From a phage, in sequence record PZ179883.1: DNA of 64,000 bases. One strand, 5' to 3'. Under the pieces are notes generated by a model. It did not search any database, had not been told where the DNA came from, and saw only the letters and a list, made by a program, of their open reading frames with translations. The stretch's first letter is position 1. Every line of letters starts with the position of its first letter. Positions 27,393 to 52,532 of the stretch are shown here, piece by piece. A program made the translations under genes and the position numbers.

Positions 27393-27445
27393 CCTCATGT
27401 TATGTCAGTAAGATTATTATAACACAACACGAGGGACTTGTAAAC
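27393..27445 (-). promoter_or_regulatory. early (sigma70-type) promoter with dyad symmetry, repeat copy 1
   Basis: Minus strand GTTTAC-17/18 nt-TATAAT; inverted repeat CCTCGTGTT/AACATGAGG flanks -10; 50 of 53 nt identical to 43043-43095. Confidence 0.6.
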
Positions 27446-29502
27446 TACATTTTGAACTTTTTAGACATTCCGTTGATATTAACCAAAGAAGCCAAGATTT
27501 GAGAAACTTCGTTTTCCTCTTCTTTTGATTCTTCTACAAGGAATTGGTTAAATCCAGTCATTGGACGAACTTCACCAGTTTCCATTAGATGGTCGCCATC
27601 ATATACCGATTCTTCTAATTGTTCAGAAGGAGGAACGATTGTGCCTTCGATTAGATACTTGTTATAAGCAGTTTCTTTCATCATGTACGTACTCACTTTA
27701 TTAATCTTCAGTAAAATTCCACGTGGTAGAATAACTTCAGCTTCTGACGGAAATCCTGATAAATGACCCGGAACGATAACTTTGATTCGCTCAGCTCCTT
27801 TAATTACCATACCCACGCTAGTTTCAGCATCTTCATTCGCATAAGCAGAGTGACTACCCATATGCATTAAATCTTCAGCATCAACTGAACCTTCTCCTTC
27901 ACCAGAAAATACTGCACCAGAATCATCTAGAGCCATATAGTTTTTACCATACTCACCGAAGATATTTGGTTTAAGCGATGTGGATACGAAGTTCTTGAAA
28001 TAGAACATTTTATTTTCAATATTATGACGTAAAGTTTTAAAGGTAACTTCTTGTCCACGGTAAAGCGTAGTTCCTGGAGGAAGAACTGATCCTTTGGCAA
28101 AGGCAGAATCCATTGTCTCGATGTGTTTAATAGCTCGTTCCATGTATTCTTCACGAGTAGAATCTGGTTTACCTAAAAGGAACGAGTTCATTTCAACATA
28201 TGAATCTGCGCAATAATCTTCAATTACATCAGACTCAGCCCGAGTTAATCCTTTTGGGGGTACTTCAGTACTTGCATATTCATACGCTTGAGAAGCAGAC
28301 TCATTAATCAATTTATACACGCCATTCATGACAAATTGAACAATAGCTACCTTTTCATCTGGCGTGGCTTTAGAACCTTTAACTAAATCATTGATAATTT
28401 TCTTAATAACATCAAAGCTATTAGAAATATTAATGTCAGCAAGATCGCTTAAAATTTTATCAGTTTTATAATCAAAAAATTCTTTATTCTTTAAATATTC
28501 TTGAGAACCTTGATATGTTATATCGCTCTGTAACTTGATAGATGGATCACGTAAACGTGCATGAGCCAATGCAATATGATTTCGGAAGCTTTCTAGTTCA
28601 TAATCGCTAGATTTAAAACGAGAAGCGCTTCTCATACCACCGATAGCTCCTTTGCTGAAGTTTGAACCAACCTGAATAACGCCAGAGTTCATTGGTCCTT
28701 CTGCTTTATATACCGGAACTTTAGATTCAAACTCTTGATATTTCTTAGCAGCGAAGCTATCACCCTGAAGTGAAGCATCGACAGTAGAATATTGAGCTTG
28801 TGCTGCTAATCGACGACTAATTTTAGTTTTCTGAATAACAGCTTGGTCCGTGCGCTTATCATTTTCTAAAGCAATAGAAGCAGCAACAGCAACAGCTTTA
28901 GGAACAGCATTACCTGTTTTAACATCTACATAAACATCACCAACCTTTGATTCAACTTTTGTGAATAACTCAGTTGAAATAGGAGGTACACCTGGAATGT
29001 CTTCTAAATTGGCATTTTTACGATAAACCATAATATATGCGTACTTTTTATCATAATCCCAGATTTCCTTTAAAAGAACATATCGACCTGCTCCTTTAGT
29101 ACGTACTAAACGGTCAGCAATAACTTGCATTTGACGAGCAGCGCCATTTGTTTTACTCTTTAGTACGCGGAATAAGCATGCATCAATTTTATACTGTTTC
29201 ATTGTTTGAAGAGCAGTATCAAAAACAGCGTTAATGACGCCAATTGGATTTCCACCCAAGTTTCTAAGTTTAACCAGTGATAATTTCTCGTTGACACCTA
29301 TCATTACGATATGCATCATTTTATCGCCCGGCTTAACGTTTTTATTTGTATCACCTCCAGAGGTGTATGTACAAAATCTAAATCCAGGAAGCACGCTTTC
29401 TTCGCCGGCTTGAATAGCAAAAATTTGAGGTATTTTATGCTTAGGATTTAAGTTAACAACCGGCGCCGAAGCGCCGTCAAATAATTCTGTAATAAGTTCC
29501 AT
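27445..29502 (-). CDS. Alt-like ADP-ribosyltransferase (second tandem paralog)
   Basis: 685 aa; N-terminus MELITELFD shared with Alt; conserved TLYRGQ, FVSTSL and EAEVILPRG motifs; central region divergent. Confidence 0.85.
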   Translation of the reverse strand: MELITELFDGASAPVVNLNPKHKIPQIFAIQAGEESVLPGFRFCTYTSGGDTNKNVKPGDKMMHIVMIGVNEKLSLVKLRNLGGNPIGVINAVFDTALQTMKQYKIDACLFRVLKSKTNGAARQMQVIADRLVRTKGAGRYVLLKEIWDYDKKYAYIMVYRKNANLEDIPGVPPISTELFTKVESKVGDVYVDVKTGNAVPKAVAVAASIALENDKRTDQAVIQKTKISRRLAAQAQYSTVDASLQGDSFAAKKYQEFESKVPVYKAEGPMNSGVIQVGSNFSKGAIGGMRSASRFKSSDYELESFRNHIALAHARLRDPSIKLQSDITYQGSQEYLKNKEFFDYKTDKILSDLADINISNSFDVIKKIINDLVKGSKATPDEKVAIVQFVMNGVYKLINESASQAYEYASTEVPPKGLTRAESDVIEDYCADSYVEMNSFLLGKPDSTREEYMERAIKHIETMDSAFAKGSVLPPGTTLYRGQEVTFKTLRHNIENKMFYFKNFVSTSLKPNIFGEYGKNYMALDDSGAVFSGEGEGSVDAEDLMHMGSHSAYANEDAETSVGMVIKGAERIKVIVPGHLSGFPSEAEVILPRGILLKINKVSTYMMKETAYNKYLIEGTIVPPSEQLEESVYDGDHLMETGEVRPMTGFNQFLVEESKEEENEVSQILASLVNINGMSKKFKM

Positions 29503-29505
29503 GAT

Positions 29506-31554
29506 TTATCCTTGAACGAACTTGTAAGGCATGTTTGTAATATCTATGCAAGACGCAATAATTCCAAGAGATGATTCTACTTTCTGTTTAACATTTGATG
29601 AAACAAATGATGCAAAGTCAACTCTATCTTCTATATCACCTGTCATTGTAACTACTTCGCCGGTTTCCATTAAACGGTCACCGTCATAAATTACTGATTC
29701 GGTGAGTTCTTCGGTGGTCATAACTTCAGCTTGAATAAGCTTGTTGTTAGTTTTGACTGTTCCATCATTGTAAGATGCATCAGTTATTTTATTAACTTTG
29801 ACCATTAATCCACGTGGCAAAATGACTTCCATTTCATTTGAAGGCGCTAAACTTCCACCGGGTAAAACAACATTGACTTTATCAGCCCCAGTAATAACCC
29901 ATCCAATTCCGACTAAATTATCGCTAGAATTAACAAGCCCTTCATCATTTTTATCGATAGAAATGTTTAGACGCTTTTCATCTGGTAAAACACCAACAGC
30001 TGAATCAGTCATCCAAGTACCAAAAATGTTTGGATATAATGATGTTGATACAAAATTTCTAAAATAAAAAACTCGATTTTTTACCATTGCTTCGTATATT
30101 GAAGGTAACATTCGTTGTGAACGATACAAAGTAATACCTTTTGGTAATCGTTCACCATTTTTAAAGGCTGAATCTAAATTATCAATAGCTTTTTCTATGT
30201 CAGATGCTGTCAAAATACTTGTACGCTCATCTGGATTATATAATCCCAAAAGAGCATTATTTATGTCTACATATCCTGAACCTACGTATTCACGAATTCC
30301 GCGTTTTTGTGCTGGTGTGTATTTAGATGAATCTTTATTTTCGACTATAGGATGTAATGACCATCCAGCTGTAAGAGCATATCCACGTAATTCTCTTCGA
30401 ATAATCTTTGTTTTTATTGCATTCCAAGAATTTTGTACTAACTCATTTGCAGCATCTTGGTTTAAATGCGAATGTTTGTTAATATTTCTTTCAAACCAAG
30501 CACCTTTATATTTTTCTAAAGTATCATCGACGATAGAAGCAATAGTTTCTAAAGTTTTTATTGAAGTAATAGATTCTTTTCGTAATTTTTCTAAAGCTTT
30601 ATTTTTTATTTCTGCATTAATAATGGATTCTTTATCTTCAGGAATTATAGAAGCTTCTCTGAATGCCATCCCAGCTGTAACACTGCTAAGAGCATTCTCT
30701 AGTGCAAATCCTGAAGTAGAAATTACCGTTAATTCATTAGAATCAGAAATTAAAGGCGCGTCCGCTGGTTTATTTAATTCTGCCGCTGAAGCCTCAAATT
30801 TTTGAAACATCGGTGTTTCAAATCTAGAAGATTCCAATGACTGACTTTGTGCAATTGCTCTACGGGAAATTTTAACTTTAACGATTACAGCTTGGTCAGA
30901 ACGTTTATCATTTTCTTGTGCAATAGATGCTGCAATTGCCTCATTTTTGGTTACTTGAGCTCCGGTATCTTTATTGATATAAACATCACCGACCTTCGAT
31001 TCAACTTTAGTAAAGAGCTCGGTACTAATTTCCGGAACTCCTGGAATGTCTTCTAGTGATACATTTTTGCGATGTATAAGAATATATGCATACTTTTTAT
31101 CATAATCCCAGAGTTCCTTAAGAAGGACGTATCTGCCACCTGAACGACTACGGATAAGTCTATCAGCAATAAGTTGAATTTGTCGAGCTTGACCAGCAGT
31201 TTTAGACTTAAGAATACGAAGCATGCAGGCATCAATTTTATACTGACGCATCGTCTGCATTGCAACAGTAAAAACTGAATTGATATAATTAATTGGGCTT
31301 GGACCGAGACCTTTCAATTTAGCAATTGAACCTTTAGCAGTTAATGTAAAAGGAACAATGTGCATCATTTTATCGCCCATCTTTAGATCACGGTTAGTAT
31401 CACCTCCAGATGTATAGGTACATAAACGAAAGCCTGGTTGTTCAATTGCGTCATCAACATGAACTGAAAAAATTTGCGGTATTTTCTTCTTTGGATTTAA
31501 GTTTGTAATCGGAAGAGTAGTATCTTCGTCAAATAATTCTGTAATGAGTTCCAT
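29506..31554 (-). CDS. alt: Alt ADP-ribosyltransferase (capsid-packaged)
   Basis: 682 aa from MELITELFD; matches recalled T4 Alt; TLYRSQ, FVSTSL and EMEVILPRG motifs. Confidence 0.93.
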   Translation of the reverse strand: MELITELFDEDTTLPITNLNPKKKIPQIFSVHVDDAIEQPGFRLCTYTSGGDTNRDLKMGDKMMHIVPFTLTAKGSIAKLKGLGPSPINYINSVFTVAMQTMRQYKIDACMLRILKSKTAGQARQIQLIADRLIRSRSGGRYVLLKELWDYDKKYAYILIHRKNVSLEDIPGVPEISTELFTKVESKVGDVYINKDTGAQVTKNEAIAASIAQENDKRSDQAVIVKVKISRRAIAQSQSLESSRFETPMFQKFEASAAELNKPADAPLISDSNELTVISTSGFALENALSSVTAGMAFREASIIPEDKESIINAEIKNKALEKLRKESITSIKTLETIASIVDDTLEKYKGAWFERNINKHSHLNQDAANELVQNSWNAIKTKIIRRELRGYALTAGWSLHPIVENKDSSKYTPAQKRGIREYVGSGYVDINNALLGLYNPDERTSILTASDIEKAIDNLDSAFKNGERLPKGITLYRSQRMLPSIYEAMVKNRVFYFRNFVSTSLYPNIFGTWMTDSAVGVLPDEKRLNISIDKNDEGLVNSSDNLVGIGWVITGADKVNVVLPGGSLAPSNEMEVILPRGLMVKVNKITDASYNDGTVKTNNKLIQAEVMTTEELTESVIYDGDRLMETGEVVTMTGDIEDRVDFASFVSSNVKQKVESSLGIIASCIDITNMPYKFVQG

Positions 31555-31577
31555 CATATCCTCTCTAGTGTTTATTC

Positions 31578-31585
31578 TATTTATA
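31578..31585 (-). promoter_or_regulatory. late promoter TATAAATA (minus strand) upstream of alt
   Basis: Exact TATAAATA on minus strand about 20 nt upstream of alt ATG. Confidence 0.65.
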
Positions 31586-31590
31586 AAATT

Positions 31591-31607
31591 AAAGGCCCGA
31601 AGGCCTT
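31591..31607 (-). terminator. hairpin AAAGGCC-UUCG-GGCCUUU downstream of gene 30 operon
   Basis: UUCG-loop hairpin on the minus strand followed by AAUUUUAU. Confidence 0.5.
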
Positions 31608-31795
31608 TAATAATCTAATGGTAAGAGAGTACGATATATTTCAAACTTTGGCCCTTTTTCATAGGCATCAAATGTTTCTGTAAATTTATTATAAGCATAT
31701 GCATCTACAAATTCGAGAATGACTTGTGATACAGAAGTAGAAACATCTCCACCTTCTTTTTGAGCTATAACAATTGTTTCTAAGTAAGCTTTCAT
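31607..31795 (-). CDS. hypothetical protein between gene 30 and alt
   Basis: 62-aa ORF overlapping gene 30 stop by 4 nt. Confidence 0.6.
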   Translation of the reverse strand: MKAYLETIVIAQKEGGDVSTSVSQVILEFVDAYAYNKFTETFDAYEKGPKFEIYRTLLPLDY

Positions 31796-33252
31796 AGACC
31801 AGTTACCTCATGAAAATCACCAAATACATCCTCGAATGTATTAGCTTTAGTTTTATCTTCACGTAAACGAATCGCAATCGGAAGAAATAATTTAACGTAA
31901 TCAGTGCGGCCATCAGATTTTAACCAACCGTTGCATTCGCACTCTAGAATTTTTCCAATATAATAATTTTGGTTTTCCATAATGCGAGTACGGTCAAGTT
32001 CATGTGATTTTACACCAGCTTTATCTTTTAAACCTGAACCAGCATTTACCTTAATTTTTCCACACTCTGATTCAAGAATAAATCCACCTGCTTTAGTAGG
32101 GTCTTTACGGTGAGGATAAATTCCTACAATTTTTAAATCAACATCAATTACTTCTTTAAATTTATAGAGATTTTTTGAACGAGCATTTTCCCACAATCCA
32201 TCGGTATTTTTGAGAATAATACCTTCAAGACCTCGGTCAATATATTTTTTATAAATTACCTTAGCTTCATCTAGGTTATTTACTACCTGGTTTTCAATTA
32301 AAATTACTTTATCATATCCTGATGTCATTTGTTCTAGTTTAGAAAAACGTACATCATATTTTAAACGAAACGCCGGAAGACCGTATATTTCTACCAACGG
32401 GACATAATCCCAGACCTGAAACTTCATACATTTGGCTTCTTTTTCTGAAATAGTTCCCTTTAAAGATTTATTGGCGATTCCATTAGAAGCAGTACGAGAT
32501 TCAGCTACTTCAGCAAACTCTTTAACTTTACTATTTTCAGGAGAGTCAAAAAGAAAATCTAGGCCTTCTGGCTCCTTTTCAACTTGCTCATGGTATACCA
32601 ATTCGCCATCAATTAACACACCTTCTGGATGAATCTGACGGACTTCAGCAGTCATTTTGATTAACTCTTCCTTAAGAAGATCTAATCCTAGATATTCATT
32701 GCCAGCTCGTGATAAAAGACGAACATCATCTAATTCATCACCTCGGACTTCAGCAAAACACCGAGCTCCATCTGCTTTTAACTGCGCAAAAGCTGGAAAC
32801 TTGATATTCTTACTAATGCCTTTTTCATCATAAGAACTTGCCAGCATTTGAGGTTGTTCAGGAATTAAACCTGGCCAAACTTTGTTTGCAATAGATACTG
32901 AAGCACCACATTCAAGGTCTCGCATCATAACTCGACGCAAAACTTCAACATCATCCTTTTTACCATCGGTGATATACCCGATTAATTCCTCAATTGCTGC
33001 ATTTCCAGTCAATTTCCGAGTAGCTAACGTGAATTCAATGAAGTCAAGCATATCGGTAATAGTCAACATTCCAAAACTCTGGGTAGCAATACCAGGTTTA
33101 GGCCATTTCTTGATATAATACTGTAACCCACGAGAATAAGTCAGACGATATACTCGTTTAAGCAATTCATTATCTTTATTCTTTTCAAGAATTGCTTGCT
33201 TCTGCTTAGTTGATCCAATAGATGCTATTTCATTCAGAATTTTAAGAATCAT
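31792..33252 (-). CDS. 30: ATP-dependent DNA ligase
   Basis: 486 aa; KADGAR adenylation motif; matches T4 ligase. Confidence 0.97.
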   Translation of the reverse strand: MILKILNEIASIGSTKQKQAILEKNKDNELLKRVYRLTYSRGLQYYIKKWPKPGIATQSFGMLTITDMLDFIEFTLATRKLTGNAAIEELIGYITDGKKDDVEVLRRVMMRDLECGASVSIANKVWPGLIPEQPQMLASSYDEKGISKNIKFPAFAQLKADGARCFAEVRGDELDDVRLLSRAGNEYLGLDLLKEELIKMTAEVRQIHPEGVLIDGELVYHEQVEKEPEGLDFLFDSPENSKVKEFAEVAESRTASNGIANKSLKGTISEKEAKCMKFQVWDYVPLVEIYGLPAFRLKYDVRFSKLEQMTSGYDKVILIENQVVNNLDEAKVIYKKYIDRGLEGIILKNTDGLWENARSKNLYKFKEVIDVDLKIVGIYPHRKDPTKAGGFILESECGKIKVNAGSGLKDKAGVKSHELDRTRIMENQNYYIGKILECECNGWLKSDGRTDYVKLFLPIAIRLREDKTKANTFEDVFGDFHEVTGL

Positions 33253-42190: not shown

Positions 42191-42540
42191 TTAGAAAGGT
42201 CCTGGATGTCTTCTGCGAACTTGTTGAAGGAGTTATTGATTTGTTTTTCAACCAATCCTGGCTTATGAGCCACCACATCCGCCTTCTTTGCATCTTTGCG
42301 CAGTTTTTCATTTTCACGCTCAATAGCAGCAATTGCCTCACGATTTTTATTATTCATCGCATCAATATAATTATACTGAATTCGCAAATTATCTAATGCT
42401 AAAGCGTTTTCATTGGCCGTTTTTGTAATTTCAGTAACCGATGTTTCTAATCTTTCTACCTTATTTTTTAAAATAATAGATGTTCCGCCAAATGCTATTA
42501 CAAGTAATAGCAATCCAGCTGTAAAATTACTTACATGCAT
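42187..42540 (-). CDS. i-spanin candidate (Rz equivalent): N-terminal TM helix plus coiled-coil
   Basis: Hydrophobic segment AGLLLLVIAFGG near N-terminus then charged helical region; 117 aa. Confidence 0.7.
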   Translation of the reverse strand: MHVSNFTAGLLLLVIAFGGTSIILKNKVERLETSVTEITKTANENALALDNLRIQYNYIDAMNNKNREAIAAIERENEKLRKDAKKADVVAHKPGLVEKQINNSFNKFAEDIQDLSK

Positions 42541-43034
42541 AAAGTTTTAATAACCTCTACAATATCGTCTTGAGAAAGACCGTTAATTAAAATATGATGT
42601 TCAGCTGGAGATTTAGAAATTTTAAAGCATGCCTCAACATCTTCTGCCATATCCGATGCGCTACGATTTGGATTGCTAATTCCAAGACGATGTTTTCCCG
42701 TCAAAGGATTAACGATGATGTAGCATTTACAGCTATTAATGTGAACATTAGGTTGAGTCTGATTAATGAATACTTCGCAATCATATTTCGCAAGCTGATT
42801 TTCTAAAAAGACTTTCATCTCCTCAACCGCATCAGGAAGCATATCACGGGCTTGCTCAAGACGACGATTTCGATATTCTTTAATGGTCGTTTTCCGCTTG
42901 ACTTGCTTAGCTAAATCTTTCTTAAGATCGGTGATATATCCAACTCGACGATTTCCTTTAAATACAGAAATCCCATCTGTAGTATCACCATATGCTTCAA
43001 CGACCATTTCAGTAGTAATAAGCTGTAAATCCAT
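42531..43034 (-). CDS. alc: Alc, inhibitor of host transcription elongation
   Basis: 167 aa from MDLQLITTE; matches T4 Alc. Confidence 0.93.
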   Translation of the reverse strand: MDLQLITTEMVVEAYGDTTDGISVFKGNRRVGYITDLKKDLAKQVKRKTTIKEYRNRRLEQARDMLPDAVEEMKVFLENQLAKYDCEVFINQTQPNVHINSCKCYIIVNPLTGKHRLGISNPNRSASDMAEDVEACFKISKSPAEHHILINGLSQDDIVEVIKTLCM

Positions 43035-43042
43035 CATAAAGC

Positions 43043-43095
43043 CCTCATGTTATGTCAGTAAGTCTACTATAACACAACACGAGGGACTTGTAAAC
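43043..43095 (-). promoter_or_regulatory. early promoter with dyad symmetry, repeat copy 2
   Basis: Minus strand GTTTAC-17/18 nt-TATAGT; same inverted repeat as copy 1; 3' arm contains the alc SD. Confidence 0.6.
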
Positions 43096-43097
43096 AG

Positions 43098-44685
<1,588 letters not shown>

Positions 44686-51219: not shown

Positions 51220-51519
51220 TCAAACAGACTTTTTCACAATTTTCCAATCAGCTTTAAACTGTTCAACGTCAGAATGATAAATCCAGAATCCTGCGCTTTC
51301 TCCATCCTCATAAAGAGGGCATCCATCGCATTCATCTTCCCATCCCATATCACGTAAAAGATGTTCGGCTTTTTCAACGAGATCAGAATCTTTACCGATG
51401 ATATTAAAATACCATTTACCTTTAACTTCTGAATCTTTGATGCTCTGACGTTGTAATCTCATTTTATTCTCCTTAGTTGATAAGGCTATAGTATCACTAC
51501 CATAGCCCGTTGTAAACAA
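51220..51519 (-). CDS. hypothetical protein (frd.x)
   Basis: 99-aa ORF. Confidence 0.65.
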   Translation of the reverse strand: MFTTGYGSDTIALSTKENKMRLQRQSIKDSEVKGKWYFNIIGKDSDLVEKAEHLLRDMGWEDECDGCPLYEDGESAGFWIYHSDVEQFKADWKIVKKSV

Positions 51520-52462: not shown

Positions 52463-52532
52463 CAGCAGTATTGCCGATAGTTGTATAGTACCATAGAAGA
52501 ACAGAGATGTAAACAGTTTTGTGAAAAATTTT

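Follow-up and report, generated by a model that had tools for sequence, protein, structure and literature searches.

A 53-nt cassette between rnlA and alc in a Tequatrovirus genome joins a T4-type early promoter to a stable RNA hairpin, and the 3′ arm of this hairpin holds the Shine-Dalgarno (SD) sequence of alc. From the modelled folds, we propose that the cassette may be a promoter-gated translation element, in which an early promoter is nested in an SD-hiding hairpin, a reading that we think has about an even chance of being right. The transcription start site, the translational block and the biological purpose are what we infer from thermodynamics, comparative data and the published timing of T4 gene expression.

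A repeated cassette between rnlA and alc

The window is the whole stretch of phage DNA analysed here (64,000 nt, PZ179883.1). It belongs to Tequatrovirus, and at the cassette locus its identity is 100% with Shigella phage SF2-1 and ~95% with T4. On the minus strand, positions 43095-43043 read GTTTACAAGTCCCTCGTGTTGTGTTATAGTAGACTTACTGACATAACATGAGG, a 53-nt cassette (copy 2) that runs from the -35 element to the alc SD. An earlier note on this DNA had named 27393-27445 as its partner with 50 of 53 nt identical, and the alignment of copy 2 with 27445-27393 is indeed a gapless 50/53 match. The likeness ends abruptly at both edges, and the three mismatches between copies 1 and 2 all fall within the -10/loop portion. 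Taken separately, both cassette halves have exactly two occurrences in the 64-kb window, against 0.00-0.01 expected from shuffles. When the nine T4-type early-promoter regions of the window are set in register, the other 35 pairs share only 15-35 of 53 positions (mean 24.6), so a match of 50/53 is far beyond ordinary promoter similarity.

The gene coordinates and the comparison with T4 place copy 2 between the rnlA stop and alc, in agreement with the note (Table 1). The rnlA stop, TAG, occupies 43100-43098, and GTTTAC begins 2 bases further on. The alc SD also sits inside the 3′ arm at the distance of 4 to 5 nt before the AUG that had been claimed, with GAGG(G) at 43046-43042 standing 5 (4) nt ahead of the first ATG at 43037; the T4 annotation starts the gene at the following ATG (43034). 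Copy 1 borders a paralogue of alt that is prone to indels (complete here, reduced to alt.-1/alt.-2 in T4), and copy 2 is flanked by the conserved genes rnlA and alc.

Two features of the surroundings may be recorded here. On the minus strand, the window carries tandem full-length Alt-like ADP-ribosyltransferase genes of 685 and 683 aa (27445-29502 and 29506-31557); T4 has only remnants of the second Alt-like gene (alt.-1/alt.-2), but its final codons are kept directly before the cassette. A 72-aa ORF on the plus strand (42883-43101) runs antisense over the cassette and the alc start, and nothing suggests that it is a gene.

Table 1. Coordinates of the cassette copies, their parts and the neighbouring genes in the window
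Feature	Position	Strand	Remarks
Cassette copy 2	43043..43095	-	between rnlA stop and alc start
-35 element GTTTACA (sigma-70 hexamer TTTACA, 43094-43089)	43089..43095	-	2 nt past rnlA stop
Extended -10, TGT (43074-43072) and TATAGT (43071-43066)	43066..43074	-	17-nt spacer
Predicted transcription start, A of conserved CTTAC	43059	-	7 nt past -10; placed by spacing
5′ arm of core stem, CCCUCGUGUUGUGUU	43071..43085	-	equals the -35/-10 spacer; opens with anti-SD CCCUC (43085-43081)
Upper 4-bp helix AGUA/UACU with loop GACU	43057..43068	-	separated from the core by a 2-nt bulge (43070-43069)
3′ arm of core stem, GACAUAACAUGAGGG	43042..43056	-	holds alc SD GAGG (43046-43043)
alc CDS	42531..43037	-	protein 100% identical to T4 Alc
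rnlA (RNA ligase 1 / gp63)	43098..44222	-	upstream of alc
Cassette copy 1	27393..27445	-	overlaps stop of 685-aa Alt-like paralogue; precedes alt.-3 homologue
alt.-3 homologue, 96 aa	27094-27384	-	downstream of copy 1

An early promoter nested in a hairpin

By its sequence signature, the cassette is a T4-type sigma-70 early promoter, with GTTTACA, a 17-nt spacer and TGT-TATAGT giving 10/12 matches and the TG present. A CTTAC/CTAC motif recurs after the -10 element in relatives, and both GTTTACA and the promoter signature are invariant across 35 aligned relatives. In Yersinia phage fPS-90, the annotation marks the orthologous site as a predicted early promoter. Together with the TTTACA hexamer, the 17-nt spacing and the TG-extended TATAGT, this annotation bears out the early-promoter nature that had been assigned to copy 2. 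The 5′ arm ends 12 nt before the predicted +1 at 43059, which falls within the 3′ strand of the upper helix, so that the promoter's own RNA would lack this arm.

The dyad symmetry of copy 2 proved bigger than the note had described, which gave the stem as 9 bp; this was an underestimate, as RNA folding finds 15+4 bp. The core stem pairs 43085-43071 with 43056-43042 over 15 bp, three of them G.U pairs, and 3 further bp form at the foot. As RNA, copy 2 folds at -26.5 kcal/mol (z -5.1), a stability matched by 0 of 200 shuffles, and copy 1 forms the same hairpin at -21.4 kcal/mol (z -4.6). By comparison, the RNA that begins at the predicted alc start folds at -1.8 kcal/mol (z -0.6) and is without significant structure. 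In the predicted fold of the read-through RNA, all four SD bases of alc are paired. The predicted cost of opening the region from SD to AUG is 12.6 kcal/mol in alc read-through RNA versus 3.1 kcal/mol in the promoter's own RNA, and for alt.-3 the corresponding values are 12.2 and 2.3 kcal/mol. Opening the whole 30S footprint of alc (-18..+13) is predicted to cost 22.3 kcal/mol in read-through RNA versus 5.5 kcal/mol in the promoter's own.

The fold also differs between strands in Tequatrovirus, at -26.5 kcal/mol for the sense and -17.5 kcal/mol for the antisense RNA, and at -12.6 versus -8.3 kcal/mol as DNA. Outside Tequatrovirus, the stems are Watson-Crick and antisense folding is equally stable. 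Because the stems of other genera are built in this way, we dropped the G.U strand asymmetry as a general argument for selection on the sense RNA.

Conservation of the hairpin across Straboviridae

Spacers between rnlA and alc came from two sources, annotated records of phages in 13 genera and 49 loci in IMG/VR, which together yielded 40 distinct sequences keeping GTTTAC. In almost all Tevenvirinae, GTTTACA directly adjoins the rnlA stop or shares bases with it. Folding reached z ≤ -3 in 36 of the 40 distinct alc-upstream sequences (median -4.5), and in 35 of the 40 a helix of at least 7 bp joins the spacer to sequence 3′ of the -10 element. The SD itself is paired with the spacer in 28 sequences, or in 30 with two GGGG-type SDs added. 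The arms vary by genus, as in TCTCCGTTTAGTT/AACTAAACGGAGA, TCTCCATTTGGTT/AACCAAATGGAGA, TCCTCATCAG/CTGATGAGGA and ACCTCTCATTTT/AAAATGAGAGGT. The hairpin is absent upstream of alc in Mosigvirus, and the 3′ arm stops short of the SD in 5-7 of the 35 hairpin-bearing relatives, including Tegunavirus, the sequence L042 and Acinetobacter phages.

RNAalifold found no consensus structure in a plain MAFFT alignment of all 35 Tevenvirinae sequences, because the arms occupy different registers between genera. Pairs were counted in a subset of 15 sequences with a common register, and the remaining sequences were judged by their individual z-scores. Within this subset, standard pairs fill 88.7% of cells versus 34-56% with slid partners. 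Two-sided changes occur at four pairs, one pair appears as GC, UA, CG, AU and UG, and switches of the SD between GGAG and GAGG are matched by changes in the spacer. The covariation score of the subset was reached by 0 of 500 shuffles.

Gaprivervirus has a canonical terminator after rnlA and a separate SD-burying hairpin. In the Gaprivervirus phages VR25 and P479 (L007, L016), the loop of the post-rnlA terminator contains a -35-like TGTACA, and a 77-aa ORF annotated as an Alc fragment lies between the terminator and the full alc. The SD-burying hairpin of these two phages, GGTTCCATCA/TGATGAGGACC, stands ahead of the Alc-fragment ORF.

Two copies per genome and exchange between loci

A 60-nt query found 999 places in 500 Tequatrovirus records, with two copies in 499 records and three in none. 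Where both copies of a genome were read, the paralogous copies differ by 0-3 nt, and these differences either lie in the loop/-10 region or turn a U.G pair into U-A. The partial records PQ799574.1 and PQ561419.1 carry one cassette copy each. The 53-nt cassette alone also matches 31825-31877 of MG010123.1 (Staphylococcus phage SAJK-IND), near the end of a 32-kb record, and this match probably reflects a contaminated assembly or a chimera, not biology.

Dhakavirus, Mosigvirus, Marfavirus, Karamvirus and Gaprivervirus likewise have a GTTTACA promoter in the spacer between alt and alt.-3, placed at the alt stop. In those five genera, the alt.-3 promoter carries a small hairpin within the spacer (CAC..AAGGA..GTG) and has no SD pairing. 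Since the alt.-3 spacers of other genera lack this pairing, the Tequatrovirus alt.-3 copy is most simply read, from the sequences, as an alc-type cassette copied to a second locus. The alc promoter of Mosigvirus (L041/L009) has a small spacer hairpin of the type seen at alt.-3 (L073-L077), and in one Dhakavirus alt.-3 leader (L073) the 30 nt of the 3′ half, ACCTTACACAAACATGAGGAGAACATTATG, are identical to those in the alc leader of the contig L043. Such likenesses suggest that half-cassettes have been repeatedly exchanged between the alc and alt.-3 loci.

Other promoters and terminators in the window

The minus strand has nine early promoters of the T4 type, and six of them sit within significant hairpins (z -2.8 to -5.2). 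Pairing of the spacer is with the SD at three promoters of the window (alc, alt.-3 and 36356) and with the -10/+1 region at three (51516, 39770 and 35964), and the latter group indicates that the hairpin also, or mainly, has a purpose independent of the SD. At the minus-strand early promoter at 52513, the hairpin is weaker. This promoter and the four at 51516, 39770, 35964 and 36356 are of the form GTTTAC-N17-TGnTAnnAT.

A terminator scan of 42500-44400 returned 0 sites, and thus none between rnlA and the cassette. Read-through RNA from rnlA would accordingly carry the complete hairpin, as the earlier note had expected. Upstream of the tandem alt genes, a late promoter TATAAATA lies at 31585-31578 on the minus strand, so that late RNA can reach copy 1; near copy 1 and copy 2 themselves, the minus strand has no TATAAATA late promoter.

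Two further elements were seen upstream of these genes. A MotA-dependent-like middle promoter for rnlA, TGCTTCC-N13-TACTAT, occupies 44245-44273 on the minus strand in the gap after denA, with a spacer that can fold into the small hairpin CCACA-TGGAG-TGTGG; a 2010 table of identified T4 middle promoters has no entry at this position. A canonical terminator, AAAGGCC-UUCG-GGCCUUU with a U-rich tail, abuts the late promoter TATAAATA upstream of alt (31578-31608, minus strand), and this compact terminator-promoter junction is of a different kind from the cassette.

Discussion

Our folding and comparative results can be joined in a model of promoter-gated translation. RNA begun near 43059 would have the 3′ arm only, which would leave the alc ribosome-binding site open and allow Alc to be made. 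Read-through RNA from rnlA or from further upstream would have both arms, and the resulting hairpin of about -26 kcal/mol would bury the SD and keep alc silent. In this arrangement, the spacer supplies the 5′ arm, and the -10 element and the predicted start site sit in the bulge and the upper helix. Alc, and the alt.-3 product at copy 1, would then be produced only while the early promoter fires, regardless of middle or late transcription through the gene. T4 early promoters are shut off within minutes after infection, by a mechanism that is incompletely understood, and a gene translatable only from its own early promoter would stop being expressed at the same time.

The published T4 timing fits promoter-gated translation, as omics data class alc and alt.-3 as early RNA and early protein, rnlA as early RNA and late protein, and alt as late. 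Read-through into both cassettes is plausible, given the lack of a terminator between rnlA and alc, the MotA-box-like promoter before rnlA and the late promoter before alt. The rnlA stop precedes the stem foot by 8 nt, and a ribosome terminating at this codon might loosen the lowest pairs. Translational coupling of alc to rnlA is unlikely, as a stopped ribosome with the usual footprint should reach only to ~43089, the foot of the extended stem, and not to the anti-SD at 43085-43081. RegB cleavage does not account for the Tequatrovirus cassette, its SD being GAGG and not GGAG.

The hairpin could instead act on the upstream RNA, either by attenuating or terminating read-through from rnlA or alt or by shielding a 3′ end against exonucleases, and the overlap with the SD would then be a by-product of packing promoter and stem-loop together in a 60-nt intergenic space. 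We consider this account less likely than promoter-gated translation but a serious rival, and the two are compatible. It draws on the promoter-early stem-loop (PeSL) cassettes described for T4-like phages (Arbiol et al. 2010, PMC2839356; Comeau et al. 2014, PMC4122927). Arbiol et al. (2010) showed that one such stem-loop lowers the expression of a reporter as a strong terminator does. Hairpins clear of the SD, at the alc locus and at three such promoters elsewhere in the window, point the same way, and a stabilised 3′ end would be useful to rnlA and alt, whose proteins accumulate late. However, no U-tract follows the stem, the next bases being CUUUAUGAUGG here and A-rich in Karamvirus and others, and the scan of 42500-44400 was empty, whereas the phage's own terminators are canonical GC-rich hairpins with a U-tract. 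An action on upstream RNA as the sole role is also at odds with Gaprivervirus, which has its SD-burying hairpin besides a true terminator, and with the placement of the 3′ arm exactly on the SD in 28-30 of the 35 alc hairpins.

Two further accounts seem improbable to us. A near-perfect duplex of ~19-22 bp could be a site for RNase III or another double-strand-specific nuclease, at which the rnlA-alc read-through RNA would be split. The Tequatrovirus stem of 15+4 bp, plus 3 at the foot, is within the range of substrate lengths of RNase III, but the stems of most other genera are only 10-13 bp, which is short for this enzyme, and a review of post-transcriptional control in T4 does not mention RNase III. 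Slightly more doubtful still is a dyad without RNA function, whether as a cruciform, as the site of a dimeric protein (for example in early-promoter shut-off, where the gap in understanding leaves room for one) or as a recombination cassette homogenised by recent gene conversion. PeSLs are documented recombination sites (PMC2839356, PMC4122927), the copies differ by just 0-3 nt per genome, and in other genera halves of the cassette seem to have moved between the two loci, alc and alt.-3. Yet the arms diverge by genus while compensatory changes keep the pairing, which excludes a sequence-specific protein site and chance, and the variation among copies is confined to the loop or improves a pair. 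For Tequatrovirus, the three G.U pairs become A/C mismatches on the other strand, and the sense fold is the stronger as both RNA and DNA; this strand asymmetry is evidence against a cruciform there.

Promoter-gated translation might extend beyond these two loci as a general design of Straboviridae early genes, one that ends Alc-like synthesis at early shut-off and whose copies stay alike by recurrent ectopic exchange. We hold this wider claim only tentatively. If it is right, a post-transcriptional layer is added to the abrupt end of early protein synthesis. For the cassette itself, promoter-gated translation would mean that one 60-nt element both starts the message of a gene and silences that gene on all other messages, so that protein synthesis is confined to early times with no repressor protein involved. 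PeSL stem-loops would gain a second function beside attenuation and recombination, and synthetic operons could use the element as an insulator of simple, portable design. For annotators, the alc and alt.-3 promoters of Tequatrovirus genomes should show up as a 53-nt repeat.

Comparison with known systems

The cassette is conserved, and it varies regulatory designs that are already known from T4. An Rfam search gave no family match, with two hits at chance level only (E 0.29 and 0.64) and far under the gathering scores. A hairpin at alc is not mentioned in two T4 reviews or in the two PeSL papers (PMC2839356, PMC4122927), though older T4 literature may describe it, and alc is not named in the review that covers the SD-sequestering hairpins of T4 (PMC3014915). 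The cassette resembles an intrinsic terminator in being a stable hairpin right after a stop codon. It differs in having no U-tract, a long loop region and the tail CUUUAUGA, and the canonical terminators of the window look quite different. On the lack of a U-tract and the 0 sites in the terminator scan, we rejected an intrinsic terminator.

By its structure, the cassette is a PeSL. Published PeSL stem-loops, which contain G-T pairs, can sit in the gap from the -35 to the -10 box or extend into these boxes, and an early promoter and a stable stem-loop share one intergenic cassette that reaches from the upstream stop to the downstream SD/ATG. PeSLs are repeated within a genome and their copies are exchange sites, much as the present cassette occurs twice per genome with signs of exchange between loci, and the PST/T4 promoter consensus TTTACW-N17-TAYWAT fits the cassette. 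In contrast, the stem of the cassette runs from the spacer through the -10 element and the start site to the SD, an arrangement absent from the five published subclasses, and the legend of the PST/T4 figure puts the stem-loops just upstream of the promoter. The published role of PeSLs is that of a terminator or attenuator and recombination site, not translational occlusion. PeSLs are found by preference in hyperplastic regions, beside ORFans and indels; here, copy 1 has the indel-prone alt paralogue as its neighbour and copy 2 two conserved genes. The two cassette copies are moreover fixed, being present in 499 of 500 matched Tequatrovirus records.

A close functional parallel would be the T4 genes e, soc, 49 and I-TevI, for which it is experimentally established that longer read-through RNAs fold the SD and/or the AUG into a helix (PMC3014915). 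In these genes, a promoter in the DNA for the 5′ strand of the helix gives translated RNAs without that strand (PMC3014915). The alc and alt.-3 cassettes share this geometry in their predicted folds and with the start site placed by spacing, so that, except for the late promoter, they would belong with the same design. The difference lies in the promoter, which is sigma-70 early in the cassette and gp55 late (TATAAATA) in e, soc, 49 and I-TevI. With an early internal promoter, the predicted logic is reversed, and translation would occur early only, with silence on middle and late read-through RNA. If true, promoter-gated translation at alc and alt.-3 would show that the mechanism of e, soc, 49 and I-TevI is used with early promoters as well as with late ones.
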